From positions 1 through 40,259 of the forward strand of contig JAGDYD010000031.1 in the NCBI GenBank assembly GCA_023256515.1: 40,259 nt of DNA, in the 5' to 3' direction. A model generated the notes under the pieces. That model made no database searches. It was not told the origin of the DNA and saw only the letters and a list, made by a program, of their open reading frames with translations. Of this stretch, positions 4,882 through 20,523 are shown piece by piece. Position 1 is the first letter of the stretch; every line of letters starts with the position of its first letter. The DNA comes from Candidatus Micrarchaeota archaeon. Its GTDB lineage: Archaea > Micrarchaeota > Micrarchaeia > Micrarchaeales > CABMGC01. A program made the translations under genes and the position numbers.

Positions 4882-6081
4882 ATGGCTGAAGATGTAACAA
4901 AGACCAGTATAGATACATTAGTAGAATATCTAAAGGAGCATGGAGAAACTGATTCTTCGACTCTTGCGAAAACCTTAGGAGTCAGCGAGACGCTAATAGA
5001 AGAATGGTCGAATATACTAGAGAGGTCAAATATAGTTAAAATAAACTATAAAGCTGGAAAGATGTATGTAGCCCCCTTGGCTGTTACAAAAGGAGGAGCT
5101 GAAGAAGCGCAGCATAGCATAGAGATAGAGAAGGAGAATATAATAAATGAAGCGACAGCCCAGCTCGATGAGATAAATAGGCTAAACGAGAAGATAGAAA
5201 ACCTTAGCAAAGTGATATCAAGCGGAAATGAGATTCTAAAGAAAAAGATGGGCCCTTTGAAAGAGGAATTGGACGAACTTTATAAAATATCTAATATAGT
5301 TGAAAAGAAATATAATGAGGTTAAAGAAAGGAAAAAAGAAGTAGACACAATAGCAGAAAGACTTAACAAAGAGGTAGAGGGGCTAAAGGAGAGGGCCTCT
5401 AACATAGAAAGATTTAGCATAGACACTGCCAATGCCAAAAAGCTTCTACAAGATATACAGAATAAAATAGAGCTTATGCAGAAGACGTTAGAAGAAGAAA
5501 TAGAAAACAGAAAAAAGGCATTCGAAATGCTTGAAAAAAATGAAAAAGCCATTGTTGAAAGCATAAAAAACGAGATAAATGCAATAAGAGAGATGATAAT
5601 AGCGAGCGAAAGGCAGATAAATGAGGCACAAAAGTTAGAGACGCAGTACAAAAAAGATGCAATTATGCTCAGAAGAAAGCTAGATGAGACAGGGAAAAAA
5701 GCGATAGCAGACATCTCGAAGGATAAAGAGGAAATAGAAAAATACTACAATCTCTTAGACAAAAAATATGCTGAGCTAAAGTTAAAGATAGAAGATGTTA
5801 AGAAAAGCATAGGGGACATAACAACTATCAATGAAACGCTTAAAAAAGCTCAAAACTCAATAGAAAACATAAACAAGAGCAAAGAGCCATTGCAAAAGGA
5901 GCTAAATGAAATAATACAAGAGGCAAAGAGCATAGATACATTAGCAAAGGAAGATATAATTACAGGCACAAAGAAAGTAAAAGAGCTTAAAGACAAGATT
6001 TCAAAATCACGTTCTAAATTAGGAGAAATAAATAAGATGGTTTCTGATACAGATGAGAATATAGAAGACTTAATGAAGTGA
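4882..6081 (+). CDS. Winged-helix (N-terminal) plus long coiled-coil protein; first gene of the filament ATPase operon
   Basis: The N-terminus (TSIDTLVEYLKEHGETDSSTLAKTLGVSETLIEEWSNILERSNIVKINYKAGKMYVAP) has a helix-turn-helix plus wing pattern. The remaining roughly 320 aa are K/E/I/L-rich heptad-like coiled coil. The gene stops 4 nt before the ATPase start. Confidence 0.5.
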   Translation: MAEDVTKTSIDTLVEYLKEHGETDSSTLAKTLGVSETLIEEWSNILERSNIVKINYKAGKMYVAPLAVTKGGAEEAQHSIEIEKENIINEATAQLDEINRLNEKIENLSKVISSGNEILKKKMGPLKEELDELYKISNIVEKKYNEVKERKKEVDTIAERLNKEVEGLKERASNIERFSIDTANAKKLLQDIQNKIELMQKTLEEEIENRKKAFEMLEKNEKAIVESIKNEINAIREMIIASERQINEAQKLETQYKKDAIMLRRKLDETGKKAIADISKDKEEIEKYYNLLDKKYAELKLKIEDVKKSIGDITTINETLKKAQNSIENINKSKEPLQKELNEIIQEAKSIDTLAKEDIITGTKKVKELKDKISKSRSKLGEINKMVSDTDENIEDLMK

Positions 6082-6085
6082 ATGC

Positions 6086-7588
6086 ATGGCCGAGAATGAA
6101 AAGGTATATGATTCTTATGAGCTTGACGCTCATGGCTTGAAAGTAAATGTAAGAATAGTAGACAAAGGGGATTTTGTACCTATTTACGAAGTAACTATGC
6201 CTGGTATAGGAGAGGCTACAAAGATACTTCTCCTTTCAGAAAGGCAGGAGCTTCTTTCCCTTGTACCAATAGACCCAACAAGGATAGAAGACAAAGAATA
6301 TGTTGCTGAGCTCACAAACAAGTATATAGAGGCTTCAAATATAATAATCGACAAGTATCTGCCAGGTACAAATAAAGAAATAAAAAAGATGCTTACTGCT
6401 TATATAATAAATATAATGCTCGGCCTAGGAGACCTAGAAGCACCTCTTGCTGATGAAAACCTTGAAGAAATTGCAGTAAATACTTCAAAAGAGCCTGTTT
6501 GGGTATTTCATAAAAAATATGGCTGGTGCAAAACAAATCTAGTAATACCTAGCGAGGAGATAATATACGATGACGCAGAGCAGATAGGAAGAAGAGTGGG
6601 CAGGCAGATAACAAATTTATCTCCTTTAATGGATGCAGAATTGCCAGACGGCTCAAGAGTAAACGCTACATTATACCCAATATCACAAAAAGGAAATACT
6701 ATAACAATAAGAAAATTCGGCAAAAACCCGTGGACTATGCCTGCTCTTGTTGCAAATGGCACAGTTTCTAGCTATCTCGCTTCTTTAATATGGATGAGCA
6801 TACAAAATGAAGTAAGTATACTAATCTCTGGAGGTACTGCAAGCGGTAAAACAAGTTTCTTGAATGCTATGAGCATATTCATACCACCAAACAGGAGAAT
6901 TATATCTGTAGAAGAAACAAGAGAGCTTACGTTGCCTGAATTCTTGCATTGGGTGCCTATGGTAACAAGGCAGCCGAATCCTGAAGGCAAAGGAGAGATT
7001 AAGCTATATGACCTCATGATAAATGCCCTCAGGCAAAGGCCAGATATAATGCTTGTAGGAGAAATTAGAACCAAGAGCGATGCGGAAACATTATTTGAAG
7101 CAATACACACAGGGCACTCTGTCTATGGAACAGTCCATGCCGATGACACGCAAGATACCATAGTAAGAATGACAAACCCACCTATAGACATACCTAAGCT
7201 GATGATAAATGCTATAGGCAGCATAGTTACCCTTTTCAGGCATAGAAGGTTGGGAATAAGAAGACTCTTAGAATTTGGAGAAGTCACAAGAACCGGAGAT
7301 GCTACGGTGCTTTGGAGGTGGAACCCAAGGCAAGACACATTTGTCCAAATAGGAGAAATGGCTAGGCTTGCAGATACAATAATGCTTTATGGAGGCTATA
7401 CAAGAAATGAGATGCTTGATGAGATAGAAGAAAAGAAGAAGATAATAGAGTGGATGGTCAAAAATAAAGTATTTGATGTAGACGCCACAGGTTATATAAT
7501 AGCAAACTATTACAAAGATAAAAACAGCGTACTAGATATAGTAAACAAAGATACGCCATACTCTAGTGAATTGTTCAAAAAGGTGTAA
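6086..7588 (+). CDS. Type IV filament assembly ATPase, FlaI/PilB/VirB11 (T2SSE) family
   Basis: It carries a Walker A motif (ILISGGTASGKTSFLNA), a Walker B/Asp box (RPDIMLVGEIRT) and a His box (GHSVYGTVHAD). The 500 aa length includes the N-terminal domain typical of archaeal FlaI-like ATPases. Confidence 0.9.
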   Translation: MAENEKVYDSYELDAHGLKVNVRIVDKGDFVPIYEVTMPGIGEATKILLLSERQELLSLVPIDPTRIEDKEYVAELTNKYIEASNIIIDKYLPGTNKEIKKMLTAYIINIMLGLGDLEAPLADENLEEIAVNTSKEPVWVFHKKYGWCKTNLVIPSEEIIYDDAEQIGRRVGRQITNLSPLMDAELPDGSRVNATLYPISQKGNTITIRKFGKNPWTMPALVANGTVSSYLASLIWMSIQNEVSILISGGTASGKTSFLNAMSIFIPPNRRIISVEETRELTLPEFLHWVPMVTRQPNPEGKGEIKLYDLMINALRQRPDIMLVGEIRTKSDAETLFEAIHTGHSVYGTVHADDTQDTIVRMTNPPIDIPKLMINAIGSIVTLFRHRRLGIRRLLEFGEVTRTGDATVLWRWNPRQDTFVQIGEMARLADTIMLYGGYTRNEMLDEIEEKKKIIEWMVKNKVFDVDATGYIIANYYKDKNSVLDIVNKDTPYSSELFKKV

Positions 7589-7590
7589 GT

Positions 7591-8160
7591 TTGAGTTTGG
7601 TAGAACTTAATGACCCAAAAATTTTTGAAGAGATTGAAAATTTGGAGAGACCTGAAAATATAATAGAGCTTGATATAGACAAAGCTCTCCAAAATAAGAT
7701 TGATTTTAAAGAATATGATTACAATGAAGCTTTGCTTTTGCTTAGGGGCTCAGAAGAAAAAGTTGAGCAGAAAGAGCAGGAGATAGTTCAAAAAGCACCG
7801 CAAAAAGAAGAGAATGAGCAAATCCTAAAAGCCACAAAAGAGATAAAAGAGATTGTAGGATCAGTTGGCAAAGAGTTTGAAAAAAGCATAAAGAGAGAAA
7901 CGCAGAGGATAAAAGGGGAGAAGCTTATACTTCCTACTTTGTCTTTGCAAGACCAGGTATCAGAATTAGAGAAGATAAGCGAAGGCATTGATGAAAACGT
8001 TTTCAATGAAGAGCAGAGGAAGATAATAAAGATTGAAGTCAGAGGCCTTAAAGACAAGATAAAAAATGAAAAAATAATGCCTTCTGATGAATTGCAAAGA
8101 TCTCTGGTTGCTCTTAGGAATCAGAAAGTTGAAGAAGTAATAAAAAAGATTACATGGTAA
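7591..8160 (+). CDS. Acidic coiled-coil protein of unknown function (TTG start)
   Basis: The open frame sits between the ATPase and the platform genes. There is no ATG until near its end. The TTG at 7591 is preceded by AGGTG (7581-7585), which lies inside the end of the ATPase gene. The product is E/K-rich. Confidence 0.5.
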   Translation: MSLVELNDPKIFEEIENLERPENIIELDIDKALQNKIDFKEYDYNEALLLLRGSEEKVEQKEQEIVQKAPQKEENEQILKATKEIKEIVGSVGKEFEKSIKRETQRIKGEKLILPTLSLQDQVSELEKISEGIDENVFNEEQRKIIKIEVRGLKDKIKNEKIMPSDELQRSLVALRNQKVEEVIKKITW

Positions 8161-8178: not shown

Positions 8179-9177
8179 ATGTTTGGTAAAAAGAAGTATG
8201 TTCAAAACAATACACAGCCCATAGGGTTTACTAAACAGAAGAGGTTTCTTTTCTTTAAAATAAGATCAAAGCCCATATACCCAGAACAAAATCGAGTGTC
8301 GGAAATACTCCAGCAGCAAGAGGGCAAAGAGGGCAAAAAAATCTCTAAATTCCAGCTTTATATAGCAAGCATAGCGGCAAAGCATAAAGGCTTGGAGCTT
8401 GCACTAAGGGACCAAGGAATAAAAGAGAGTGTCTACGATTTTATAAAGAAGATGCTAATAAATTCAATAATAATAAGCTCAATACTTTCTGTGGCTATTT
8501 TTGTAATGCTCATGCATTATTATTTCAGCATAGCGGAGAGTTTGATATTTGCTCTTGTGCTTGGAATTGCTTCTTTCCAAGTCTTCTTCAACAAATTTGT
8601 GCAATATCCAATAGACAGAAGTAAAAACGTAGGGAAAGAGATAGAAAGAGACATACTCTTTGCTGCAAGAGACCTTGTCATAAGCATGAGGTCAGGAATG
8701 CCCCTCTTCAATGCGCTCACCACAGTGAGCACGGGATATGGAGCAGCTAGCAAGGAGTTTGCAAAAATAGTAGAGCTTGTTCAGCTTGGAATGCCAATAG
8801 AGCAGGCAATAGATGAAGTGAGCAGCAAAAGTCAGTCAAAGACATTCAAAAGTTTAATGCTACAAGCATCAGTCAGCATAAAGGCTGGCGCAGACATAGT
8901 TGGCGCATTGCAAGGAGTTGTAGATGAAGTTATGCAAGAAAGAGTTATAGAGCTTAGGAGATATGGGCAAAGGCTGAATGCACTTGCTATGTTTTACATG
9001 CTTTTTGGAGTAATATTTCCAAGTATGGGTATAGCAGTAGCTGCAATACTTACTACATTCATAAGCATATTTACGGTTGATGAATCAACTCTTATATTCG
9101 CATTAGTAGGCATTTTATTCTTGCAGCTCATATTCCTTAACATTATGAGGTCCTCAAGGCCAACATTTGCAATGTGA
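8179..9177 (+). CDS. Type IV filament platform protein, single T2SSF domain (TadB/EpdJ-like half of FlaJ/PilC)
   Basis: The cytoplasmic T2SSF-type helical domain (ERDILFAARDLVISMRSGMPLFNALTTVSTGYG...MPIEQAIDEV) is bracketed by hydrophobic helices. The protein is 332 aa. Confidence 0.8.
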   Translation: MFGKKKYVQNNTQPIGFTKQKRFLFFKIRSKPIYPEQNRVSEILQQQEGKEGKKISKFQLYIASIAAKHKGLELALRDQGIKESVYDFIKKMLINSIIISSILSVAIFVMLMHYYFSIAESLIFALVLGIASFQVFFNKFVQYPIDRSKNVGKEIERDILFAARDLVISMRSGMPLFNALTTVSTGYGAASKEFAKIVELVQLGMPIEQAIDEVSSKSQSKTFKSLMLQASVSIKAGADIVGALQGVVDEVMQERVIELRRYGQRLNALAMFYMLFGVIFPSMGIAVAAILTTFISIFTVDESTLIFALVGILFLQLIFLNIMRSSRPTFAM

Positions 9178-9181
9178 TTGT

Positions 9182-10168
9182 ATGATATCATTTGAAAAAT
9201 TAGTTGCAAGGAATGTTGTAGTTTTTGTTTCCAGAGAACTTGACCTTGCAGGATCAAAAATGACAGTCAATAGATTCCTTGGAATAGCCATAGTTGGGGG
9301 CATATTAATTCTTACTATTGTCTCATATTCTCTCTTCTTCCTTAAATTCAATGCAGGTATAGCTGCTCTGGCAGGCATAGGCTCTGCTATAATGTATGAA
9401 ATAATTTTATACATGCTTCTAGAATTCAATATAGAAAAGAGAAAGAGCTTTGTGGAAAGTATACTGCCAGACTATCTTGAGATAGTGGCTGCAAATGTAA
9501 GGAGTGGAATCTCATTAGACAAAGCAATGGTTTTAGCAGCTAGGCCGGAATTCAAATATTTCAGCGAAGATGTAAAGCTAGTAAACAAGCAGCTATATGC
9601 TGGTTCTACATTGCAAAGCATGCTAAACAGCCTGGCAGATAAATATAGATCACTGCAGCTGAAGCACACTGTAAGAATGCTCATAGAAGCTATACAGTAT
9701 GGAGGAGGCATGACAGATTTGCTAAACCAAGTTGCAAAAGATATAAGGAACCAACAAATGATACAAAAAGAAATATCAGGCCAATTGTTCATGTACACAA
9801 TTTTCATAGCTTTTGCTGCTATAATGGGAGCACCTACACTTTATGCACTTACCACCAAAATGATGACAATAACAGATACGGTTTGGGCGGGAATACTGGC
9901 ACAAAACCCAGGAGGGCTTCCAACAACAGGCGTCTCTTTCTTAAGGCCAAGCCCACCAAAGATTACTATAGGCATGTATCAAGATTTTGCCCTCACTGCA
10001 GTAATATTGATATCTGGATTTGGAGCATTTATAGTATCTGCAATTTCAACTGGCTCTGTGATAAAAGGATTGAGATATTTGCCTATATTCATAGTGGTTG
10101 GCTTAGGAGTATTCTATGTCGTAGGTGCAGTTATAGGATCTATGTTTGCTAGTATAAGCGGAATATAG
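9182..10168 (+). CDS. Type IV filament platform protein, single T2SSF domain (TadC/EpdK-like second half)
   Basis: It has a T2SSF-type domain (LPDYLEIVAANVRSGISLDKAMVLAARPEF...) plus membrane helices. The ATG at 9182 lies 5 nt after the upstream stop. The track start at 9167 is a TTG inside the previous gene. Confidence 0.8.
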   Translation: MISFEKLVARNVVVFVSRELDLAGSKMTVNRFLGIAIVGGILILTIVSYSLFFLKFNAGIAALAGIGSAIMYEIILYMLLEFNIEKRKSFVESILPDYLEIVAANVRSGISLDKAMVLAARPEFKYFSEDVKLVNKQLYAGSTLQSMLNSLADKYRSLQLKHTVRMLIEAIQYGGGMTDLLNQVAKDIRNQQMIQKEISGQLFMYTIFIAFAAIMGAPTLYALTTKMMTITDTVWAGILAQNPGGLPTTGVSFLRPSPPKITIGMYQDFALTAVILISGFGAFIVSAISTGSVIKGLRYLPIFIVVGLGVFYVVGAVIGSMFASISGI

Positions 10169-10169
10169 A

Positions 10170-12830
10170 TCAACCATTTAGCCCAAATCCACTTTTTTCA
10201 TTTATTATTCCAATTATACCCATACCTGCATTAGGATAAGATCCTGAAATAGGAGAGTAATGAACATTGTATGCCGTAGCATTATTACCAATGCCACTAT
10301 AATCATTTGAATTCCCAAGCAGAGGATACCACAATACAAGATTCTGCAGATCTATAGGAGCACCTGCAATGCCATTTTTATAAATTGAATAAATTTGCTG
10401 CTTTGACAATGTCGTGTTGTAGAATTGATAATTAGCCATTTCTCCTTGGAAATAAGCCGCGCCATCCCCACAATTCGTATAATCAGAGGGGCCAAGAGGA
10501 TAATACATTTGAGATGTACCACCAGGTATGCTTCTGCTTCCTGTTCCTGAGTTCTTATAAACACCATTTATATAGCCTGAATAATTAAGAGAAACACCAT
10601 TGTATGATAAAGACATTACTATATTGGACCAAGAGTTTAATGGTATAGGACCAAGATTCACGCAACCCAAATTCCAGACACGAATATAAACATTACCATT
10701 TACCAGATCTATCCATGTATCATGCCAATTCGTATTTATAGAACTCTGCCCCAATTCATCAACTATATCACCATTTGGCGAAGAAGGATTTACCCATATT
10801 GAGATAGTTGCAGGCTGTATTGCATTATTCATGAATCCAAAGCCATTATTTTGTATTATATAACCAGTCCCGCTGAACCCAGCAACATCGAAGTTCTGCG
10901 AGACTTCAAGAGGCAATTTGCCAATATACAATGCAGATTTGCAGTTTGTACCACTTATGCAAGAAAGCGTTCCTGGCACAGGATAAGTTGCTGGTGTAGG
11001 TACAATATATATTGAATCTCTAGTATAGTTGAGCGGCGATGAATATGAAATTGAAACAGGTGTACCGTTGTCTCCAAATCCACTATAATCGTTCGCATTG
11101 CCATTTAGAGGCCACCAGCCGACTAAGCCAGCATTGCTTATAGGCAAACCGGCTATTCCTTCTTGATATAGATGCTGTATTTGTTGCCCAGAAAGTGATG
11201 TATTATAAATCTGAACATTTGCTATAGAGCCATTGAAGAAATTATTTGAATTATCGTTTCTACTTCCTATGTTTGTTGGACCAGAAGGCTGATTTATTGA
11301 ACCCGTAACTGTAGATTGATTTACTTTGTTTCCATTTACATAAATTGAGATATAGTTCCCATTATAAGTGCCTGTTATAAAATACCATTTATTTGTTTGA
11401 GAAAATGCGTGAGGTGCAGTTACAGGGCCATACCATGAACCACCGATATTAACCCAAAAGTCTCCCTCCATGTTATTATTGTTGTTTATTGCCAATACAA
11501 ATCCCCCGTTTTGATTTTCCTTTGAACTGACTATTGTCTCTCTAGGCCCATTTACATTTTTTGAAGAAGCAGGCATTATCCATGCAGATACTGTTACTGA
11601 ATACTGGCCAACATTTATATTGTTTGAGATTGTTATGTGGCTGTTTTGCCCATTGAAGTTTGCTGCTTGCCTATTCATGTTTTCAAATGTAAATATACCA
11701 TTTGGAGATATATCTCCAAAATTGCCAGACACCCTTTCACTATAAGAAGGTAAGAAAGGAGAAGCAAAATAGAAACCGTTTTGTATTGCACTTCTCAATC
11801 TGCTTATATCTAAAATATCCATGCCAGGACCATATAATAATACTTTTGCGCCGTTTGGAATTTGGTTTAATATGTTTGTCGAGCTTGAATAAACAAGCCA
11901 CGGTATATTTGGAGGAGAGCTTATACTATTTATTGAATATGTTACAAGACCGCCAAACCTATTTGCAGCATTGCATGTTCCATTTGTTATGTAAACCGCA
12001 TTTGGAGTTGCAAGTATCACAGACTTGTTCAAAGGTGCTGTTTGAGCCCATTTTGGAATATTGCTCGATAAGCTCGTGCAAGTTACCCCGCTAGGGACAT
12101 GCAACACTATACCATATATAAAAGCATTTTGGCTTGAGTTACCATATGCTGCATATGCATTGCCTACCACACTTGAAAGATTGCTTATAGAAGAAAAGCG
12201 TATTTCCCTTTGTATTCCTTGCTGCGCGTAGAACAAATCAAGCGTGCCATTTAAAGGAATTGAAGCATAAACAGGTATGGAATAATTATATATTCCAGAT
12301 TCTGTAGAAACTGAAACATTTTCTAAAAAGTAAATCGAGAGATTATAAGGCCCGTTTTGATATATGATCGGATTTGACTCAGTAATTTCCACACTTATTG
12401 GAGAAGGCTTTAGATTTTTTATTATGGAAAGATTGTAAGACAAAAATGTTGAATTACCCATGTATGATGCAATGATATTTGCTGCTATTGAATTTCTAGG
12501 AACGTTTGGAAGTGTACCATTTACTATAAGATCGCCAAGGTACAGGCTTAGGTTAGATACTAAGTTGTCTTTCCTAAGGCTCGCATTATATTCATATTTA
12601 GTCAAAGTTGACAAAGCCCTTGAAAGAGACTCTTGGGCAAAAGAGCTTGCCATGGATTTTAAAGCAGATGCATAATTTATTGATTGAGATACAGATGAGG
12701 CGCTTTGCTGTATTTTGTTGTAGCTTATATTTAGCATTATAAATACGAAAAGCTCAGCTATCATCAGCGTGAATAGCACAACTACCAATATCGTCATTAG
12801 GAATCCTCTTTTTCTTTTTATCAATGCCAT
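10170..12830 (-). CDS. Giant pilin-like surface protein: class III signal-like N-terminus, about 380-aa N-domain, two Laminin_G_3 (ConA-like lectin) modules
   Basis: The N-terminus is MALIKRKRGFLMTILVVVLFTLMIAELFVF. Two LamG module ends are present: FFNGSIANVQIYNTSLSGQQIQHLYQEGIAGLPISNAGLVGWWPLNGNANDYSG and FQGEMANYQFYNTTLSKQQIYSIYKNGIAGAPIDLQNLVLWYPLLGNSNDYSG. There are ten N-x-S/T sequons in the first roughly 200 aa. It is the last gene of the - strand operon. Confidence 0.75.
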   Translation of the reverse strand: MALIKRKRGFLMTILVVVLFTLMIAELFVFIMLNISYNKIQQSASSVSQSINYASALKSMASSFAQESLSRALSTLTKYEYNASLRKDNLVSNLSLYLGDLIVNGTLPNVPRNSIAANIIASYMGNSTFLSYNLSIIKNLKPSPISVEITESNPIIYQNGPYNLSIYFLENVSVSTESGIYNYSIPVYASIPLNGTLDLFYAQQGIQREIRFSSISNLSSVVGNAYAAYGNSSQNAFIYGIVLHVPSGVTCTSLSSNIPKWAQTAPLNKSVILATPNAVYITNGTCNAANRFGGLVTYSINSISSPPNIPWLVYSSSTNILNQIPNGAKVLLYGPGMDILDISRLRSAIQNGFYFASPFLPSYSERVSGNFGDISPNGIFTFENMNRQAANFNGQNSHITISNNINVGQYSVTVSAWIMPASSKNVNGPRETIVSSKENQNGGFVLAINNNNNMEGDFWVNIGGSWYGPVTAPHAFSQTNKWYFITGTYNGNYISIYVNGNKVNQSTVTGSINQPSGPTNIGSRNDNSNNFFNGSIANVQIYNTSLSGQQIQHLYQEGIAGLPISNAGLVGWWPLNGNANDYSGFGDNGTPVSISYSSPLNYTRDSIYIVPTPATYPVPGTLSCISGTNCKSALYIGKLPLEVSQNFDVAGFSGTGYIIQNNGFGFMNNAIQPATISIWVNPSSPNGDIVDELGQSSINTNWHDTWIDLVNGNVYIRVWNLGCVNLGPIPLNSWSNIVMSLSYNGVSLNYSGYINGVYKNSGTGSRSIPGGTSQMYYPLGPSDYTNCGDGAAYFQGEMANYQFYNTTLSKQQIYSIYKNGIAGAPIDLQNLVLWYPLLGNSNDYSGIGNNATAYNVHYSPISGSYPNAGMGIIGIINEKSGFGLNG
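11114..11165. repeat. 52-nt exact direct repeat, copy 1 (LamG module junction)
   Basis: accagccgactaagccagcattgcttataggcaaaccggctattccttcttg is identical base for base to 16820-16871. On the - strand it encodes QEGIAGLPISNAGLVGW. Confidence 0.9.
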
Positions 12831-14980
12831 GCTACAACACTCACATTGTATATATAAGTTGAATTAAACTGAGAATTATAAATAGGAAGCACTGTGCTTG
12901 CTTTGCTAACAATATGTGAATTGTAAAGGCCTGGAGAGAGAGGGGCATTTCTAAGTATTGATTGACAAGGATTTGAAGAATAGCCAGAGTTGTTAAGGTT
13001 ATATACATCAGATATGCAACCATCTGGATACCATGCGACTAGTCCCGTATTTATTGGAGAACCGCCAGGACCCTCTAGATACAATTGTCCAACCTGCTGA
13101 GGGCTTAAAGCTGTGCTATATATTTGTATGTTTGATATAAGACCATTAAATGTATAACTGCCCATTGGCAAGTAACCAATATAAAATGGGCTTACCCCAT
13201 GTGCTATTGGGGCTTTCTGCTTTAGCGAAGAAACTAAATTACCATTAACAAAGAGGTTTAGCTGGTCGGTTACTTGATTATATTCTGCTACTATATGATA
13301 CCATTGATCTAAGCTTAATTTTGCCCCCACTCTTGAATTTGGGGCACTCATATTGTTTGTAAATATCAGCACATAGTTTGAAGAAAGGTTTGATGATTGA
13401 TAAACATATGGATAGCCAGAACTAAGATTCTGCTGGCCAATTATGCCGTTATTTGGATACCATGAATATGGATATATCCAAAAAGACCATGAATAGCTTG
13501 GAGTATCAAGATCTTGATTAGAGATATAACCATACGTATTGACATAATATGTCGAGCCTTTAATAGATGTGCTATTTACTCCTTTTCCTGAAACAATTAT
13601 TGTATAATTATACATAGGATATATAGAGCTAGCCAGTGATTCTGCGCAGGATGTTTGATTATTTACGTATAAGTACGCTACTGCATATATAATTGAGGTA
13701 TCTCCATTTATGCCAGGCATATTACAGCCGCCAAATGCTATCACCTTATTGCCAGATATTGCAAACAACTTACCATATGCTATAGCCAAGTAAGGCGAAA
13801 ATATAGTTTTTGGTGGCAAGCCAAAAACCCAAAGCAAATTGCCATTTTGCAGATTTTGAGCAGTTAAGTTACCAGACCAAACAGAATATACAATATTGCC
13901 GCCAACAACGGGCTTGGTATTTGATGGAGCTGTACCAAAAGGCATAGGCATGCTCCATAGCGTAGAGCCTGAAGGGCTAAGTGCAAGAATAGAGCTTGAG
14001 CCTTGGTATAAGACTATTCCTTTATAAGCATTTACACCTTGTATTGTAGAGCCAGCACTTATGCCACCAAATAGCAATGTACCGTTTATGTAGCTTGCAT
14101 TTGCATTGCTCCCAGATCCATAATAAAATACACTTCCAAGAGAAGCAAGATTGCTTAGGCTTGCTTGGGCTTTTATAGGATAGAGGAGCTCTGCATTATC
14201 CTGAGAAATAACTATTGTTCCCAGATAGTTTGATGATGTTTTGAAAGCTAGTGAGCCTTCTGCTGCTGCAAATGATGTAGGCTCTTGCCCTATGTTTAAA
14301 GACCATGCTATATTGCCATTATTAGGGTATAATGCGTATGCATAATAATTGCTTGCGCCAAATATGAGTTTGCCATCATATACATATATAGGCGTTCCAA
14401 GCTGCACCTGAGATCCAGCAATTGTAACTATATTTGAGCTCCAAGCCAAATTGCCGTTCAAAGCATTAAGCGCCGTTATGTTTGTAGAATTAGCATAAAT
14501 TACCAAATTATTGTATATCGCAGGCGTAGACTGTATAGGGGTTTGTGCATTTTTTATCCATGATTTAGTCCCAGTAGTGGCATTAACTGCATACAAATAC
14601 TGGCCAGATCCAAAATATATATTGCCATAATCTGCAACTATGCCAGTCTGTATATTGCTCTGAGCAGAGAATTCAAAAGAAACAAATGGATAAATCGGCC
14701 CATAAGAAGAGCCAGCATCGCCTTCGCTATTTTTCCATTGCTGTGGCCAATATGAAGAATAGCCATTGCTTAAGCTTGCTATTTGGTATGCCAGCTTATT
14801 GCTTTGACTTATACTCGATATATTTGCATTCTCAAGCTGACTGAGTATAGAAGAGGCTTCGCTATACCTAAAAGAGTATGAAACTTGTGGGACATAGAAG
14901 AAATATAGCATTATAGATATGCTTGCAACTGCTATTATCAAAGCAAACAGAGCATCTAATGTGAAAACAACACCTTTCAT
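12821..14980 (-). CDS. Pilin-like surface protein: class III signal-like N-terminus, PQQ-type beta-propeller, one Laminin_G_3 module
   Basis: The N-terminus is MKGVVFTLDALFALIIAVASISIMLYFF. Repeated propeller-blade motifs are present (YLYAVNATTGTKSWIK, ITALNALNGNLAWSS, YAYALYPNNGNIAWSL, ILALSPSGSTLWSM, LTAQNLQNGNLLWVF). The C-terminal LamG module ends in FNGLISNIQIYSTALSPQQVGQLYLEGPGGSPINTGLVAWYPDG. Confidence 0.75.
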   Translation of the reverse strand: MKGVVFTLDALFALIIAVASISIMLYFFYVPQVSYSFRYSEASSILSQLENANISSISQSNKLAYQIASLSNGYSSYWPQQWKNSEGDAGSSYGPIYPFVSFEFSAQSNIQTGIVADYGNIYFGSGQYLYAVNATTGTKSWIKNAQTPIQSTPAIYNNLVIYANSTNITALNALNGNLAWSSNIVTIAGSQVQLGTPIYVYDGKLIFGASNYYAYALYPNNGNIAWSLNIGQEPTSFAAAEGSLAFKTSSNYLGTIVISQDNAELLYPIKAQASLSNLASLGSVFYYGSGSNANASYINGTLLFGGISAGSTIQGVNAYKGIVLYQGSSSILALSPSGSTLWSMPMPFGTAPSNTKPVVGGNIVYSVWSGNLTAQNLQNGNLLWVFGLPPKTIFSPYLAIAYGKLFAISGNKVIAFGGCNMPGINGDTSIIYAVAYLYVNNQTSCAESLASSIYPMYNYTIIVSGKGVNSTSIKGSTYYVNTYGYISNQDLDTPSYSWSFWIYPYSWYPNNGIIGQQNLSSGYPYVYQSSNLSSNYVLIFTNNMSAPNSRVGAKLSLDQWYHIVAEYNQVTDQLNLFVNGNLVSSLKQKAPIAHGVSPFYIGYLPMGSYTFNGLISNIQIYSTALSPQQVGQLYLEGPGGSPINTGLVAWYPDGCISDVYNLNNSGYSSNPCQSILRNAPLSPGLYNSHIVSKASTVLPIYNSQFNSTYIYNVSVVAWH

Positions 14981-15507
14981 TATTCAACACCAAATGATGT
15001 ATTAGTCCAAACCATTACCTGCATTGTAGAAGGAACATTGTTTATTATTATTGGCTTATTTACAACATAAATGCTAAGCGCCCTATTGGTATATGGATTG
15101 GCGCCTATTCCAAATTTTATACCTTGATAATTTACAACTATATAATAATCATAGCTTACGCCCATCGCTTGCTTAGTAGCTTGGTAATTCGCATTTGCCA
15201 TGCTCTCCAATGTTGAAAGCTTCTGCATAGATAATTGACCATTTGAGCCAAGCAAGCCTATTGATATGTTGGACCAGGATAGTGGATTGTTTATGCTTAC
15301 TAAAGAGCTCCAAGAAGCAGGATTCCCTGGAGTAAGCAACCTATTTGCCAAAGCCTGGGCTTCAAGCTGCATAGAACCTGCACTATAGCCATAAGAAAGA
15401 GAGAATTGATTGTTTATACTATACCATACAAAAGCGAGTATGGTAATGGCAAATCCAAATATAACCATGGCAAATATTACATCAAATGACCAAAATTGAA
15501 GCTTCAT
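14980..15507 (-). CDS. Small pilin-like protein (minor pilin candidate)
   Basis: The N-terminus MKLQFWSFDVIFAMVIFGFAITILAFVWYS is followed by a roughly 140-aa Ser/Asn/Gly-rich, beta-rich region. It overlaps both neighbours (ATGA upstream, TAATG downstream). Confidence 0.55.
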   Translation of the reverse strand: MKLQFWSFDVIFAMVIFGFAITILAFVWYSINNQFSLSYGYSAGSMQLEAQALANRLLTPGNPASWSSLVSINNPLSWSNISIGLLGSNGQLSMQKLSTLESMANANYQATKQAMGVSYDYYIVVNYQGIKFGIGANPYTNRALSIYVVNKPIIINNVPSTMQVMVWTNTSFGVE

Positions 15508-18500
15508 GGCAAAACACCCATATCAACTTCAGCGCTCGCATAGGCAGGATACTTATTATTATAAAGCTCCATCATTTGCTTAGGTGATAATGCTTTGTTG
15601 TATATCTGAAGGTTTGAAATAGAGCCATTTAAACCTTGGAATGATTGGCCGCCAAGATAGCCTATGTTAAAGCCAATTCCCATATAGTGCGTAGCTGCAT
15701 TATTTTCTGTTTGTGAAATGCCAGTTTGATTCATAGAGTTAACATACAATGTTGCTGCACTTCCTTTTGAAAGAACTGCGCCAACAAATACCCATGTATG
15801 GAGAGGAACTTGAATATTAGAAGAAAAAATTATGCCATTAGATGAAAGAGCCAAATGTGTATTGTTTATGAAAAGCATAAGTGTATTAGATGGGCTACCT
15901 TCGCTATATATAACAGGCGAATTTGAATATGAATTTAGGTAAATCATAGACGTAATAGTAAAATTACTCTTGCCGTTTAGAGGGGCATAGGATGAATTGT
16001 ATATATAGCTATTCTGCCCATTAAACTCTGCTCCTGAGCCACCGAAAGAATAATATGATGGCGAAAATGATGTCTGCTGCTGAGTATATGTAACATTATA
16101 AGGAATACCGTTGTTGCCATTCCCACTATAGTCTCTTGTATTGCCAAGCAATGGATACCAAGCAACAAGGCTAGAAGTCAAAGGAAGCCCATAAGGGCCC
16201 TCTTGGTATATTTGACTTACTTGTGAGTTTGTAAGATTTGTTGAGTAGAATTGAACATTTGCTATATTGCCAAAGAATTGATTTCCTGAAGGAGAATAAG
16301 CGCTTGTCAAGCCTATTTGAAAAGTACCAGGGGCAGCGTTGCCCAGTAGCTTGCCAACCTTCTTTGTCCATACCTGCTTGCCATTAAGATAAACAGTATA
16401 ATTTGCCCCGTTGTATGTTGCACCAACAAGGTTCCATGTATAGAGAGGAAAATATGAATTAACCCCTAGCCAGCCGCTCGTATTATAGCCATTTATCATT
16501 ATTTGAGTTGTGCCGCCAGTAGCAACCTCTATTGCTCCATTATCGCCAGCGCTTGTAGCTAAAACTCTGCTATATGATTCACTTGCGGTTGGAAATATCC
16601 ATGCAAAATAAGAAAACCTCGAATAATTTACCGGAACTATAGAAGGCACATTTATGAAAGAATCTGGTGTTGGATTGCCGCCAGGATTAAATGTTGCCAC
16701 ATATATGTTTGAATAGTTTCCAGAAGATGTTCCACTTGCTTTAACCATTTTCAAATTTCCGTATATTGCGCCATTATTTCCGCTACCGCTATAATCATTT
16801 GCATCCCCATCTAATGGGTACCAGCCGACTAAGCCAGCATTGCTTATAGGCAAACCGGCTATTCCTTCTTGGTAGAGCTGCCTAACTTGGCTAAAGCTTA
16901 GGGAAGAAGAATAAAATTGCACATTTGCTATTGAGCCATTGAAAAATGAGATTTGACTATTTAAAGTACCGGCGCCTATGCTCCAATTATCTGGAGTGCA
17001 TGTTTGTGGAGTTATTGAAATTGATCCCACCTCTACACCATCCAAAAACAATGTCTCTTGGTTGGATGTCTGGCTTAAAGCAACAAAATGCCATTTGTCA
17101 TCTGCAACAAAATAATTTGTATTAAATGCAAAAGTGCCTGTAGATGAAGAATCGCCGCCCGCCAAGTAGCCTTGTGGGGTAACATATATTACAGGAGAGT
17201 AGCAGCTTGCTATTGAAAGAGGCTGCGCATTTCCATTCCAGATTACCATACCACCTTTTGAAGTCTTGAACCATGTAGAAACAGTAAGTATTGAATTTGC
17301 TTGCGGTAATCCTTGTGGTAAGTTAATATATGAAGATGCGCCATCGAAATAGGCAGAGAAGCTTGGCGCATTCCAAAATGTGTTTTCCATAAACCCATTA
17401 ATCGATGAATTTGAGCTATATGCTATAGCACCATAGCCAAGATTTAAAGGATACCACGAAACAAGATTGCTTGATGTTGTGTAATTGCCGTTAAGTGCTG
17501 TTGCTTTAACTATGGCTGCGCCTGGTGCATTTACAAAATTAAGAAATGATGTCGCAACCCCATTTTGATTGGTCAGATTAGACTGCGGATCCATTGGCCC
17601 ATATGAAGAAGCAAAATTTACTAATGTGTTTGGCATAGGCTTGCCATTTGCATTTAGCACCTTTGCAAAGAATTGATATACAGTAGAGTATTCAACTGGA
17701 CCATAAGAAACACCATTATTGCCCCTACCACTATAATCATTTGCATTGCCATTTAGAGGCCACCATGCGATTAGATTATTTGTGCTTATAGGTGCACCAT
17801 CTATGCCTTCTTGGTAGATCTCTTTTAGCTGAAGAGGAGACAAAGAAGTATTATAAAATTGGACATTTGCTATAGAGCCATTGAATGCGTTGCTATCGCA
17901 TTGTGCAAATTGTGTCCCTATGGTTGCCTGTGACGATCCTGAATAGCTATTTGAATTTGTGGTTGTCGAGTTAACCCCATTTATTTCCCAATAATAATTT
18001 GGATAATTTACAGATACAGCAACAAAATACCATTTATTGTTAAATATAGAATATGGAAGCAAAGCACCACTTCCTGTATCTGCAGAAGAACATCTATGCA
18101 ATACTAAGCATGTATTGGGCAAGCAACTATTTTGCAAGCCAAATGCTTGGTAGCCAGAAAGCGAAAAGAGTGCAGTAGTCCAAGAATGCGAGAAGTTTTG
18201 AACGCTGCTCGGCCTAACCCACATTGTTATTGTGAAAGGATAATTTGTTCCAGATATAGGAACATTAGCCAATATAAATGTCTTTGAATTGTAGTTGCTG
18301 CTAGACCAAGGGCCACTAAATTCAGCAGCATAGATTTTTTCGCTTGAAAGAAATATTGATTTTGCTTCATTGCTTTGAGTGGCACATTGATAATCTAAAC
18401 ATATATTGCCGAATGAGTTTTGTATATACAAAGTCCCATTAGAATTTGGCAGTATATAGATATTTGAAGATCCTGGAGCAAGATAGGAAGGGCTTGAGAC

Positions 18501-18833
18501 AACATTTTTTGCCATGCTATATGCAACTGCCTTTATTACTTGCTTACCAACTTTTGCTTGCAATATAACTATGCCGTTTTTTGTTATTGTAATGTTATAT
18601 GGTATTATCCCTATAAAATTAGCTATAGAGACTGTTCCTGAATAGCCATTTCCTGCTTGCAGCGCTGCATCTATGCCACTCGCTATGCTTTGGGCTTGCA
18701 ATTGTAGCTGCGAAAATGTTTGGTCGCTTAAACCAAGGGATCTTTCGCTTGATATCAAAGCAAACATAAAGATGAATACAAGTAGCACAAATGAGAACAC
18801 TATCAGGAACTCAAGTGAAAGCTGAAGCTTCAT
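15504..18833 (-). CDS. Giant pilin-like surface protein: class III signal-like N-terminus, pilin-like head, four Laminin_G_3 modules and an Ig-like insert
   Basis: The ATG at 18833 gives MKLQLSLEFLIVFSFVLLVFIFMF; the track start at 18842 is an upstream GTG. Four module ends are present: FNGSIANVQFYNTSLSPLQLKEIYQEGI, FFNGSIANVQFYSSSLSFSQVRQLYQEGI, FFGNIANVQFYSTNLTNSQVSQIYQEGP and LNGSISNLQIYNKALSPKQMMELYNN. The openers are WWPLNGNANDYSGRGNNG, WYPLDGDANDYSGSGNNG and WYPLLGNTRDYSGNGNNG. An Ig-like stretch is KVLNANGKPMPNTLVNFASSYGP...AAIVKATALNG. Confidence 0.8.
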   Translation of the reverse strand: MKLQLSLEFLIVFSFVLLVFIFMFALISSERSLGLSDQTFSQLQLQAQSIASGIDAALQAGNGYSGTVSIANFIGIIPYNITITKNGIVILQAKVGKQVIKAVAYSMAKNVVSSPSYLAPGSSNIYILPNSNGTLYIQNSFGNICLDYQCATQSNEAKSIFLSSEKIYAAEFSGPWSSSNYNSKTFILANVPISGTNYPFTITMWVRPSSVQNFSHSWTTALFSLSGYQAFGLQNSCLPNTCLVLHRCSSADTGSGALLPYSIFNNKWYFVAVSVNYPNYYWEINGVNSTTTNSNSYSGSSQATIGTQFAQCDSNAFNGSIANVQFYNTSLSPLQLKEIYQEGIDGAPISTNNLIAWWPLNGNANDYSGRGNNGVSYGPVEYSTVYQFFAKVLNANGKPMPNTLVNFASSYGPMDPQSNLTNQNGVATSFLNFVNAPGAAIVKATALNGNYTTSSNLVSWYPLNLGYGAIAYSSNSSINGFMENTFWNAPSFSAYFDGASSYINLPQGLPQANSILTVSTWFKTSKGGMVIWNGNAQPLSIASCYSPVIYVTPQGYLAGGDSSSTGTFAFNTNYFVADDKWHFVALSQTSNQETLFLDGVEVGSISITPQTCTPDNWSIGAGTLNSQISFFNGSIANVQFYSSSLSFSQVRQLYQEGIAGLPISNAGLVGWYPLDGDANDYSGSGNNGAIYGNLKMVKASGTSSGNYSNIYVATFNPGGNPTPDSFINVPSIVPVNYSRFSYFAWIFPTASESYSRVLATSAGDNGAIEVATGGTTQIMINGYNTSGWLGVNSYFPLYTWNLVGATYNGANYTVYLNGKQVWTKKVGKLLGNAAPGTFQIGLTSAYSPSGNQFFGNIANVQFYSTNLTNSQVSQIYQEGPYGLPLTSSLVAWYPLLGNTRDYSGNGNNGIPYNVTYTQQQTSFSPSYYSFGGSGAEFNGQNSYIYNSSYAPLNGKSNFTITSMIYLNSYSNSPVIYSEGSPSNTLMLFINNTHLALSSNGIIFSSNIQVPLHTWVFVGAVLSKGSAATLYVNSMNQTGISQTENNAATHYMGIGFNIGYLGGQSFQGLNGSISNLQIYNKALSPKQMMELYNNKYPAYASAEVDMGVLP
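16820..16871. repeat. 52-nt exact direct repeat, copy 2 (LamG module junction)
   Basis: It is identical to 11114-11165. The flanking bases differ on both sides. A further 23-nt identical block, gcattgccatttagaggccacca, links 11095-11117 and 17743-17765 and encodes WWPLNGNA. Confidence 0.9.
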
Positions 18834-18843
18834 CAAAAACACA

Positions 18844-19299
18844 TCATGTCAACGGAGTAATATAAACACAAGGCACATTTGGCGCAGTAGGGCATGAACT
18901 AGTTGCTGTCAAGTTTACTAGATATGTGCCTGGCGAACTTATACTGCCTAAATTGCCACTCACATTTACAGGGGTGTATGCAGTAACAGAGCTTAGCCCA
19001 GAAAATGACCTTACCATAAATATTATTAGATGCCCTACAGAGCCTGTCTGAGAGCCAACATATATGTATTGGACGCCTGGTGGCACTTCTATCTGTATAA
19101 CCTGCTTTGCTGGCGGACCTTCACTACCAACAAAAGAGGCTATGCTTGCTATTTTTGATGCTGCTTGCTGAGACTCAATTGCAGCTAAAGAAGAGCTAGA
19201 GCTCGCTATTTGCATAAAAGCGATTACAACTATTGGAAGCAGTATAGCTAAGCCAAAAGCCAAGGTTATTAAGAGCTCAAAGCTAGACTGCCCTTTCAT
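18844..19299 (-). CDS. Type IV pilin-like protein (best major-subunit candidate), Epd-type class III signal peptide
   Basis: The N-terminus is MKGQSSFELLITLAFGLAILLPIVVIAF. It has a KG/Q junction with Q at +1 and E at +5, then a hydrophobic helix. The 151 aa length is pilin-sized. Its ATG overlaps the stop of the CBS gene (ATGA). Confidence 0.75.
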   Translation of the reverse strand: MKGQSSFELLITLAFGLAILLPIVVIAFMQIASSSSSLAAIESQQAASKIASIASFVGSEGPPAKQVIQIEVPPGVQYIYVGSQTGSVGHLIIFMVRSFSGLSSVTAYTPVNVSGNLGSISSPGTYLVNLTATSSCPTAPNVPCVYITPLT

Positions 19300-20429
19300 A
19301 CCATCACAACATTGTTGCCCTTGAACTGGGCAACAATTAGTTCTTTCCTATCCTTCACCTCATTATAAAGCTTTTCAACTATGTCTTTTAATACACTGCT
19401 AATGCTATAGCCTGTTGAGGCTGCTGCTACAGAGCCGCCTTGCTTAAGAACAACCTTGCCATGCATTTCATAATTTCTTACTTTTGACCTTTTCACATTT
19501 AAAGTTACGTAATCAACTTTTATTTTGCTGAATCTATTGATCTTGTTTACCATATCGTTGAGCTCTGCCCTTATATCTTCTTCATATTCTTTAGTATAGT
19601 TATCCAAGCCAGATATTATTATTTTATTTTCTTGCTCGCTACTAAATGATGCGATCAAGGCAAAAATATCCCTAACTGTTATTATACCAACAGGCTTGTC
19701 GTTTTTTGTAACTACAAGAGATGATATACCTCTCTCTACAAACACTCTTATTGCTTCTTCAAGCGGAGCATCTTGCTCTATAGAGAGAACACTTCTTTGG
19801 CATACGCTGCCAACTGGGGTATTGCTTATCGTATAGTAATAATTGCGCCTTTGTGGTGATCTTTCAGTAGCCTTAGCAAACATCTCTATTATATCCCTCA
19901 GCGTTATAATGCCATATAGAGAGCCATTTTTCATCACTATAAGCCTATTTATTTTGTTTTTCTCCATGGCACTTTTTGCCTGGGCTATATTTGCATTTGC
20001 ATCTATACCTATGGCTGGAGAAGTCATTGCATTCTCTACTGTATATTTAGAAACCAAATGCAAAGACAATATTGCTTTCAATAGCTCGCTTCTTTTTACT
20101 ATACCTTTTATCTCACCACTGTCAAAATAAGGCAAAGCTTTTACTCCTTCGAAATAGAAGTACAATATTGCTTTTTCTATTGTAGTGGACATGTCTAATA
20201 CTGGCACTTTTTTTGCAAACTTCCCTATAGACTGCCTCTTGTTCAGCTTTAAAACCCCTTTTCTTGCTAAAGTTCTATCATCGACAATACCATAGTATTC
20301 ACCATTCTTTCTTACTACTACTGCAGTGTATTCTTTTACTTTGCTCATTGCCTCTGTAACAGGATCTTTATATTCATAAAAAAGGGTCTCTGAAACAAAT
20401 TCGCTTGGAATAGGTTCTATAGCTCTCAT
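19296..20429 (-). CDS. Four-CBS (two Bateman modules) protein with a C-terminal HPF/RaiA-like (Ribosomal_S30AE-like) domain
   Basis: Four CBS-type repeats are present (..YGIVDDRTLAR.., ..IKGIVKRSELLKA.., ..LYGIITLRDIIEM.., ..PVGIITVRDIFAL..). The C-terminal roughly 100 aa are IIISGLDNYTKEYEEDIRAELNDMVNKINRFSKIKVDYVTLNVKRSKVRNYEMHGKVVLKQGGSVAAASTGYSISSVLKDIVEKLYNEVKDRKE. This matches the beta-alpha-beta-beta-beta-alpha pattern of bacterial HPF by eye. I used the ATG at 20429; the track start at 20441 is a TTG. Confidence 0.65.
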   Translation of the reverse strand: MRAIEPIPSEFVSETLFYEYKDPVTEAMSKVKEYTAVVVRKNGEYYGIVDDRTLARKGVLKLNKRQSIGKFAKKVPVLDMSTTIEKAILYFYFEGVKALPYFDSGEIKGIVKRSELLKAILSLHLVSKYTVENAMTSPAIGIDANANIAQAKSAMEKNKINRLIVMKNGSLYGIITLRDIIEMFAKATERSPQRRNYYYTISNTPVGSVCQRSVLSIEQDAPLEEAIRVFVERGISSLVVTKNDKPVGIITVRDIFALIASFSSEQENKIIISGLDNYTKEYEEDIRAELNDMVNKINRFSKIKVDYVTLNVKRSKVRNYEMHGKVVLKQGGSVAAASTGYSISSVLKDIVEKLYNEVKDRKELIVAQFKGNNVVMV

Positions 20430-20523
20430 CCTTATCCCCAAATCAAATTTAGATTAAAAAATTAAATACCTTCCTTACCTAAAATATAAAGAGTTAAATT
20501 ATTTAAAAATGCAAATTTTTGAT

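Follow-up and report, generated by a model that had tools for sequence, protein, structure and literature searches.

How DPANN (Diapherotrites, Parvarchaeota, Aenigmarchaeota, Nanoarchaeota and Nanohaloarchaeota) archaea recognise and hold their hosts is a standing question, and the locus analyzed here offers a candidate attachment device, in which even a protein of 1109 residues with four lectin-type modules has a pilin-like N-terminus. The locus lies on a 40,259-nucleotide (nt) chromosomal stretch of the DPANN organism Candidatus Micrarchaeota archaeon (contig JAGDYD010000031.1, assembly GCA_023256515.1), referred to below as the window. This stretch has a low G+C content (33-41%) and encodes an assembly ATPase whose closest relatives, at 66-99% identity, all come from Micrarchaeota metagenome-assembled genomes. 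Our analysis indicates that the locus probably codes for a type IV filament machine of the Epd/Tad type and for a set of pilin-like subunits belonging to it, three of which have been made modular by grafts of Laminin_G_3 (LamG) domains. As judged from its sequence, the locus could plausibly serve as a device for sticking to host cells.

Organization of the locus

All eleven open reading frames (ORFs) were found at the coordinates given in a preliminary description of this DNA, and the gene overlaps and N-termini quoted there were reproduced on re-checking. The ORFs form two convergent operons, a motor operon on the plus strand and a pilin-like operon on the minus strand. They are as follows, with a slash marking the putative leader cleavage site and names taken from the length in amino acids (aa):

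4882..6081, plus strand: cc399, a cytoplasmic protein of 399 aa with about 65 aa of possible winged helix-turn-helix (wHTH) followed by an extended coiled-coil region; the motor operon begins with this gene
6086..7588, plus strand: assembly ATPase of the VirB11/GspE2 family (CpaF/TadA-like, Epd-type); T2SSE (PF00437), 115 bits, E 5e-33
7591..8160, plus strand: ac189, an acidic protein of 189 aa (D+E 23%), probably helical, between the ATPase and platform genes
8179..9177, plus strand: TadC-like platform protein 1 (TadC1); single T2SSF (PF00482) in one stretch, E 4e-15; 49-82% identity to orthologs
9167..10168, plus strand: TadC-like platform protein 2 (TadC2); single T2SSF (PF00482) in one stretch, E 1e-15; 50-88% identity to orthologs
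10170..12830, minus strand: p886, N-terminus KRG/FLMTIL; conserved core of about 377 aa and two Laminin_G_3 domains
12821..14980, minus strand: p719, N-terminus KG/VVFTLD; PQQ-type beta-propeller (PQQ_2, 62 bits) and one Laminin_G_3 domain (76 bits)
14980..15507, minus strand: p175, N-terminus KL/QFWSFD; small pilin-like protein, the universal member of the set
15504..18833, minus strand: p1109, N-terminus KL/QLSLEF; pilin-like module of about 147 aa, four Laminin_G_3 domains (178 bits) and a possible immunoglobulin (Ig)-like domain
18844..19299, minus strand: p151, N-terminus KG/QSSFELL (Q+1/E+5); pilin-sized, the most conserved of the five pilin-like proteins
19296..20429, minus strand: HibA/AHA-type ribosome hibernation factor with four CBS domains and a C-terminal HPF/RaiA-like domain (the CBS gene)

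Within the minus-strand operon, ATGA overlaps join the CBS gene to p151 and p1109 to p175, the p175/p719 junction is a TAATG overlap, and p719 and p886 overlap by 10 nt. The stop codons of TadC2 and p886, which face each other, lie one base apart (10168/10170). This gap leaves no space for a terminator, so that the transcripts of both operons should overlap or collide. A TATA-like sequence, TTTATAAT, is located about 35 nt upstream of cc399.

A putative Epd/Tad-type assembly machine

Hidden Markov model (HMM) searches confirmed the T2SSE ATPase and the two single-T2SSF proteins of the motor operon. The locus thus has the T2SSE/VirB11-GspE ATPase and the T2SSF platform by which members of the TFF (type IV filament) superfamily are recognized. 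The Epd-like/Tad clade of Denise et al. 2019, which corresponds to Clade 1 of Makarova et al. 2016, is marked by a platform split between two adjacent genes with one T2SSF domain each (PMC6668835), and this is the arrangement found at 8179-9177 and 9167-10168. The ATPase shares 62-92% identity with its Micrarchaeota orthologs, and its close homologs carry the NCBI name 'CpaF family'. Its nearest solved structures are AfGspE 2OAP (238 bits), FlaI (207) and CpaF (158), and it falls below every named equivalog cut-off, with 258 of 550 bits for FlaI (NF058587), 174 of 373 for TadA and 145 of 1000 for BasE (NF053672). An archaellum was therefore rejected, in agreement with the preliminary description: the FlaI score is far below its cut-off, neither archaellin nor FlaH is encoded in the window, and the platform comprises two proteins instead of a two-domain FlaJ.

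Published assignments point in the same direction. Clade 1 of Makarova et al. 2016 comprises loci with a pair of TadC genes, five or more minor pilins and two large ConA-like (DUF2341) proteins, which were proposed to be tip adhesins (PMC4858521). Golyshina et al. 2017 assigned to this clade the locus MIA14_0170-0177 of the micrarchaeon Mia14, with the ATPase at 0170, TadC at 0172/0173 and a secreted type IV pilus component at 0176 (PMC5498576); its gene order is the same as that of the window's locus. Taken together, the split platform, the equivalog scores, the neighbours in PDB and the Mia14 assignment indirectly support the prediction that the machine is an Epd/Tad-type type IV filament system.

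The two remaining genes of the motor operon are conserved in position. Of the wHTH and coiled coil previously proposed for cc399, the coiled coil is supported by weak matches of the coiled-coil type, the only matches of this protein apart from sub-threshold ones to HTH families (HTH_65, E 0.004). In nearly all related loci cc399 sits upstream of the ATPase gene, at 20-61% identity. The ac189 protein matched no family, and it is kept at the same position in related loci at 26-56% identity.

Pilin-like N-termini and modular C-termini

In each of the five pilin-like proteins, the N-terminal [KR]-x/Q..E/D motif is the best-conserved part. Almost every ortholog has K or R at position -2 (in p151, K 50%, R 38% and A 7%). 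After the leader, the ortholog patterns are Q-S-S-F-E-L-L in p151, Q-[IL]-[AS]-L-E-[FY] in p1109, Q-F-W-S-x-D in p175, x-x-F-T-[LM]-D in p719 and [QIF]-L-[ML]-T in p886, the first acidic residue of the last lying only at about +17. Gln at +1 does not vary in p151, p1109 and p175; the same holds for E+5 in p151 and p1109 and for D+6 in p175 and p719. The QxSxE motif fits p151 (QSSFE) and p1109 (QLSLE), not p175 and p719 (D+6) or p886. For p719, the most conserved stretch was selected by the locus-search tool itself and proved to be the N-terminal MK[GA]xxFT[LM]D. Leaders with Q+1/E+5 are the signature of EppA-dependent pilins in Methanococcus maripaludis (PMC3875500). Pairwise hhalign comparisons of the five families detected similarity confined to the first ~50 residues, which is the usual pilin pattern. 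AlphaFold models of the two small proteins, built on deep alignments, consist of a long N-terminal helix and a head: residues 3-60 and a six-strand head in p151 (predicted local distance difference test score, pLDDT, 87), and residues 8-57 and an alpha/beta head in p175 (pLDDT 83).

A separate search with p151 retrieved 276 homologs of about 151-166 aa at an identity of at least 58% (58-96%), the concatenated p151+p175 query having returned almost only p175 relatives. Of the five proteins, p151 is the shortest and much more strongly conserved than the rest, which makes it a candidate core or major subunit and the likeliest choice for a stem or adaptor. Some members of this family are extended C-terminally by ~360 aa (P0170, 511 aa; P0178, 519 aa), and one extended member has a precomputed Pfam match to PF18998, so that the otherwise invariant small subunit can also be modular.

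The three largest proteins carry additional domains. HMM searches returned the four, one and two Laminin_G_3 domains previously counted in p1109, p719 and p886, respectively, as well as the PQQ_2 propeller of p719, which has BamB and other propeller matches in PDB. The number of LamG cassettes varies among orthologs: 3-4 in p1109, 0-3 (mostly 2) in p886 and mostly 1 in p719. The Ig-like insert that had been suggested in p1109 was found only as a sub-threshold match (Big_1, 22.8 bits versus a cut-off of 34.9). The dense sequons (N-x-S/T) that had been pointed out are present as counted, with 2.0-2.5 per 100 aa for p1109, p719 and p886 versus 0-0.8 in the cytoplasmic proteins checked; however, shuffled versions of the giants reproduce these counts (observed values at most 1.3 standard deviations above the shuffled mean). 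Sequon density therefore follows from a composition rich in N and S and poor in charge, as is typical for exposed proteins, and carries no signal of its own.

Conservation across Micrarchaeota

A locus scan with three p719 orthologs as queries, keeping one genome per species, yielded 61 loci. Nearly all of them are labelled Micrarchaeota, and a few 'Marsarchaeota', 'bacterium' or 'archaeon'. The arrangement p1109-p175-p719-p886, convergent with cc399-ATPase-ac189-TadC1-TadC2, was present in 40 of the 46 loci that extend far enough, counting those with TadC/ATPase genes no more than 2.5 kb from the last pilin-like gene. Recurrence over 61 related loci argues that the arrangement is not due to chance, and the co-conservation of the LamG genes with the ATPase and platform genes, on which the preliminary description depended, is thus borne out. 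In 25 of 48 informative loci, p1109 is preceded by the CBS-p151 pair; in lineages without this pair, the operon begins with the p1109 ortholog.

Outgroup gene sets and the origin of the giant subunits

A p175 profile matched 887 clusters at E < 1e-3 among 1.84 billion representative proteins, mostly of 155-190 aa and with canonical KG/Q[YF][FW]S.D leaders. In metagenome contigs around p175-type genes, small proteins with class III signals are repeatedly encoded together in an operon of five genes (L065-L144; e.g. L143, 6912-10477), and one of these outgroup contigs, 524 kb in length, is archaeal by its flanking genes. The outgroup families, defined by gene position, compare with those of the window by hhalign as follows:

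Outgroup gene 1: RG/FVFSLDAF, ~220 aa; aligns only with the N-terminal helix (first 45 aa) of p719
Outgroup gene 2: KG/FFF.., 460-600 aa, without an acidic residue; LamG-free members of 490-600 aa align with p886 residues 1-377 (97.9%, E 5e-13)
Outgroup gene 3: KG/Q.(S/T)TE, ~140-170 aa; aligns with p151 (98.9%, E 2e-17)
Outgroup gene 4: [KR][GA]/Q..(V/I)E, ~140-210 aa, immediately upstream of the p175-type gene; aligns with p1109 residues 1-147 (98.5%, E 4e-15)
Outgroup gene 5: p175-type protein; aligns with p175 (99.7%)

The leaders of these proteins are canonical, with Gly or Ala at -1 (MKG/Q, MRA/F, KKG/F), and the p151-p1109-p175 and p719-p886 adjacencies are identical in Micrarchaeota and the outgroup. 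An HMM built only from the window's seven LamG cassettes gave zero matches in the outgroup loci, which we read as a real absence. Matches of the outgroup proteins to DUF7287, DUF7262 and DUF7266 were all sub-threshold.

Since the same families are small and LamG-free in other archaea, the giants appear to be small pilin-like cores with one to four grafted LamG cassettes. It seems that the five families are an ancient set, in which LamG was grafted onto p1109, p719 and p886, with a propeller in addition in p719. Modular pilins in the strict sense are p1109 and p886, whose LamG domains follow cores equivalent to standalone proteins; p719 aligns over its first 45 residues only. The giant filament subunits of the preliminary description are therefore pilin-like as proposed, but, being orthologous to small minor-pilin-like proteins, they are more plausibly minor or tip subunits than the repeating unit. 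An adhesin-like graft of another kind on a Q-type pilin module was observed in a metagenomic relative (L117), where a protein of 1030 aa (10559-13651, plus strand) comes after the p175-type gene and has the class III-like leader MKA/QTAIEF, Ig-like segments and long beta-helix-type repeats.

Support for a filament machine and alternative explanations

One VirB11/GspE-family ATPase and two single-T2SSF genes linked to five class III-like proteins support the earlier assignment of the locus as Epd/Tad-type. Several observations weigh against the reading that it makes a filament from these subunits. There is no A24 prepilin peptidase among the window's ORFs and no short major pilin (about 60-75 aa) in the 40-kb window. 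The N-termini are not fully canonical: position -1 is Leu in 25-57% of the p151, p1109 and p175 orthologs of Micrarchaeota, and occasionally Gln or Ser, and the leaders encoded in the window have no more than 3 residues (MKL, MKG). Characterised archaeal prepilin peptidases prefer Gly or Ala at -1. The frequent Leu and the short leaders make cleavage uncertain; either the prepilin peptidase of this lineage is relaxed in its specificity, or processing differs. None of the five N-termini matched the Pfam class III signal and archaeal pilin models at E values up to 10, and at the same limit Pfam and NCBIfam gave no class III signal or pilin match for the small proteins. Foldseek searches with the p151 and p175 models against PDB returned nothing significant, only noise (OB-fold, ribosomal protein S3-like; TM-score ~0.2), so that their heads are not tied to any solved pilin. 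In four loci the pilin-like genes are rearranged and have no ATPase inside 10 kb, 23 of 48 informative loci lack p151, and no ATPase or platform gene was found inside 10 kb of the outgroup five-gene operon. In addition, LamG_3 is a broad fold family whose ligand is not readable from sequence.

Some of these absences have precedents. As the preliminary description had noted for the peptidase, archaellin and FlaH, the window's ORFs include none of these, nor FleN/MinD, and Pfam scans found no ORF in the window for a second ATPase (FleN/TadZ/FlaH-like). Epd systems often encode a short major pilin and a second ATPase elsewhere, so that absence from 40 kb is not decisive; Epd major pilins are ~70 aa long and encoded elsewhere (PMC3875500, PMC4858521). 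Mia14 has a single FlaK-like peptidase gene, MIA14_0570, distant from its pilus loci (PMC5498576), and by analogy the prepilin peptidase may lie elsewhere in the source genome. Pilus clusters without annotated pilins are often reported in DPANN genome papers (PMC9563170).

Among the other explanations, the one that survives best is a bindosome-like or type II secretion-like surface assembly, in which the ATPase and platform would place class III-signal proteins in the cell envelope, for example by pushing them through the S-layer on a very short pseudopilus. The LamG proteins would then be its cargo or form a fixed array and would not belong to a long fibre. We regard it as unlikely, with a small though appreciable probability. 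The Bas system of Sulfolobus is cited in PMC4858521 and PMC3875500 as assembling large non-pilin proteins with class III signals by means of a dedicated ATPase and platform. A set with one conserved small member and one large member without an acidic residue resembles the GspG/H/I/J/K pseudopilus; p151, at 58-96% identity, is far more conserved than exposed major pilins usually are, and the window encodes no long-filament major pilin. However, Bas itself was rejected: the BasE score of 145 out of 1000 bits is exceeded by the FlaI-, AfGspE- and CpaF-type matches, and neither solute-binding or other substrate-binding proteins nor ABC transporters are encoded nearby, whereas the cargo of Bas consists of ABC-transporter sugar-binding proteins. 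Moreover, the split platform is a hallmark of the Epd and Tad systems, which make real pili (PMC6668835), and a surface assembly of this kind would differ from a filament system in filament length, not in machine.

Uncleaved signal-anchors are a second explanation, by which the giants would be Sec-exported membrane adhesins whose neighbourhood is kept by co-regulation or genome streamlining. Such anchors would account for the common Leu at -1, the 3-residue leaders, the lack of a peptidase in the window and the lack of a pilin HMM or Foldseek match. The DPANN literature does treat LamG proteins as Sec-exported surface proteins (PMC9563170), and the flanking housekeeping genes are syntenic as well, which makes gene order alone weak evidence in small genomes. 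A plain anchor, on the other hand, would not be expected to show an invariant Q+1 with E+5 or D+6 after a basic residue in five families and hundreds of homologs. Textbook KG/Q leaders occur in the outgroup orthologs, the same five families stand together in distant archaea, and the ATGA, TAATG and 10-nt overlaps point to stoichiometric co-production. We therefore consider uncleaved anchors very unlikely.

Epd-type pili are reported to take part in transformation. A pilus for DNA uptake or cell-to-cell transfer with adhesion as a secondary function, a role that has been proposed for DPANN pili, would be in line with the speculation of Golyshina et al. on type IV pilus DNA exchange in Mia14 (PMC5498576). 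In M. maripaludis, genes essential for natural transformation have been sought by a transposon screen (PMC10133366). Such a pilus is highly improbable here, given that the locus has no DNA-binding, ComEC-like or nuclease genes and that seven lectin-type modules plus a propeller point to surface ligand binding, and such a role would in any case be compatible with adhesion.

Proposed mechanism and significance

For the preferred reading, an Epd/Tad-type filament machine with LamG-bearing pilin-like subunits, we infer leader cleavage, filament formation, subunit positions, carbohydrate binding and host attachment along the following lines. A prepilin peptidase encoded elsewhere would trim the very short basic leader, after which the ATPase and platform would extract the hydrophobic N-terminal helices from the membrane and the helices would pack into a helical core. 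The giants, too large for a repeating unit, would serve in a priming complex, a tip complex or a short pseudopilus, with p886 possibly at the very top by analogy with GspK, given its missing acidic residue at +5/+6. The stem might be formed by p151 or by a small pilin encoded in trans. A surface head of up to seven lectin-type modules and a propeller would then adhere to a glycosylated host surface or to the biofilm matrix. Adhesion to a host or matrix glycan is a plausible and natural reading of these sequences for an episymbiotic DPANN archaeon.

A bolder version combines three proposals, and we consider it distinctly unlikely as a whole. In place of a conventional pilus, the conserved five-subunit core would act as a short motor-driven pseudopilus, whose ~300-kDa multivalent head of seven LamG domains and a propeller, supplied by three different subunits, would connect the episymbionts to their wall-less Thermoplasmatales hosts, the number of cassettes would be tuned to the host glycocalyx, and one subclade would couple production translationally to HibA, tying attachment to dormancy or reactivation.

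Published papers list type IV pilus genes and LamG surface proteins separately; here they apparently belong to one system. The locus is thus a concrete, phylum-wide candidate for an attachment organelle that can be tested in existing Micrarchaeota co-cultures. It is also a clear example of a minor-pilin set elaborated via domain grafting, and current views of type IV filaments are not overturned by it.

The HibA-type gene upstream of p151

The preliminary description had listed the CBS gene as a CBS/HPF-like accessory of the pilus. The domains were recovered: CBS scored 132 bits over three detected stretches, the C-terminus gave a sub-threshold Ribosomal_S30AE match, and phmmer aligned the protein with the Pyrococcus abyssi HibA chain in PDB (9sr9_H, residues 22-358, E 1e-15). 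HibA/AHA, recently described as a factor for ribosome hibernation in archaea, has the same domain architecture (PMC13324472). In about half of the lineages the HibA gene is absent from the locus. The protein is thus a HibA-type hibernation factor and probably not a pilus component. Starting from the ATG at 20429 it has 377 aa, a length shared with close orthologs (L006, L008, L009), which makes this a better start than the TTG at 20441 chosen by the ORF lister. In this subclade the HibA gene is co-oriented with p151 and coupled to it via the ATGA overlap. A 4.4-kb metagenomic contig encodes an in-frame HibA-p151 fusion (P0135, 542 aa), in which a linker leads directly into the basic leader, '...RNKKTSKA/QSSLELL'; the fusion could be real or a sequencing artefact.

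Genomic surroundings

The upstream boundary of the minus-strand operon is formed by a tRNA gene predicted with ARAGORN, which is divergent from that operon:

20524..20594, plus strand: tRNA-Cys(GCA)

A 102-aa ORF at 20509-20817 overlaps this gene and is therefore spurious. On the opposite side, three consecutive TrkA_N (RCK) genes (2878-4823, plus strand), two of them with N-terminal membrane segments, precede the motor operon and are themselves preceded by tRNA-Gln(CTG) (2789-2863, plus strand) and an M50 peptidase gene (1991-2734, minus strand). Archease (20705-21139, minus strand) and a 499-aa exosortase/archaeosortase-like protein (21263-22762, plus strand) are encoded beyond the tRNA-Cys gene. 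These TrkA_N, M50 peptidase, archease and archaeosortase-like genes also flank the locus in many related genomes. The 499-aa protein has 10 sequons, and none of the LamG proteins has a PGF-CTERM-like sorting signal at its C-terminus. Besides archease and the archaeosortase-like protein, the window encodes PolX, Rad50, FtsZ and ribosomal protein S8e. A 373-aa polytopic membrane protein (23719-24840, minus strand) was considered as a hidden prepilin peptidase and rejected, since it lacks a GxGD-type motif and resembles a metal transporter. It has no Pfam match, and its 'GITHDEH' motif recalls metal (Ni/Co-type) transporters.

Comparison with known systems

With the Epd system of M. maripaludis, Clade 1 and Epd-like/Tad systems in general, the locus shares one VirB11-family ATPase and two single-T2SSF platform genes. 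Epd and Clade 1 loci also resemble it in having pilin-like proteins with Q+1/E+5 (here p151 and p1109), at least five genes of the minor-pilin type and large jelly-roll proteins, and in both the major pilin and the peptidase need not be in the same locus. There are differences as well. In Clade 1 the large proteins are of the DUF2341 type, whereas here the Laminin_G_3 modules, up to four each, are on the pilin-like proteins themselves. The ATPase and platform genes adjoin the pilin-like genes, while M. maripaludis has separate loci. Unlike Epd, the window contains no EppA, FleN/FlaH-type second ATPase or ~70-aa pilin, and position -1 is often Leu. Neither cc399 nor ac189 has a described counterpart in Epd or Clade 1, and the Pfam class III model (formerly DUF361) has no match here.

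The tip of bacterial machines offers a more distant likeness. In the type IVa PilY1/minor-pilin tip, a low-abundance set of pilin-like proteins is combined with a large beta-propeller adhesin, PilY1, which is not itself a pilin; in type II secretion, GspK, which has no conserved acidic residue, caps the tip of the pseudopilus (GspHIJK). Four or five pilin-like genes together, a propeller protein and a large member without the acidic residue are found here too. No sequence or Foldseek similarity to PilY1/GspHIJK proteins was detected; an analogy of this kind was drawn by Makarova et al.

TafC, a minor subunit of the haloarchaeal Tat-fimbriae (Tafi), likewise ends in an adhesin domain of LamG-like type. 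It was rejected as a relative: the NCBIfam model scored 30-62 bits versus a cut-off of 410 and only in the LamG regions, and the N-termini have no RR motif. Tafi are Tat-exported and, in place of a type IV machinery, use donor-strand complementation for assembly. The match is explained by the shared LamG fold.

The closest functional precedent, by analogy, is found in Streptococcus sanguinis, where the minor pilin PilC carries a ConA-like lectin module within a glycan-binding minor-pilin complex (PMC9934059). In PilC and in the bimodular pilin PilB, a C-terminal module is grafted onto a pilin module, as here (PMC9934059, PMC8179133). The S. sanguinis machine is bacterial and type IVa-like, with one graft per pilin and proteins of ~50 kDa, whereas three of the five subunits are modular here, with one to four cassettes each and sizes up to ~120 kDa. 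This likeness is an analogy, in which the grafts have no shared ancestry.

The preliminary description had known of no characterised archaeal pilus with LamG-built subunits of this size, a view of its novelty that overlooks earlier work. Golyshina et al. described the expanded LamG genes of Mia14 as 'linked to' type IV pilus loci (PMC5498576), and the ConA-like (DUF2341) adhesins of Clade 1 and PilC of S. sanguinis are also earlier examples. The type of machine, the presence of large ConA-like adhesins in loci of this kind, the LamG expansion of DPANN archaea, the loose LamG-pilus linkage in Micrarchaeota and the lectin-bearing modular pilins of bacteria are already known. New in comparison with these systems are that the LamG proteins are themselves the pilin-like subunits, that by sequence comparison they appear to have arisen through the grafting of domains onto members of a widespread set of five genes, and that the arrangement is conserved phylum-wide.

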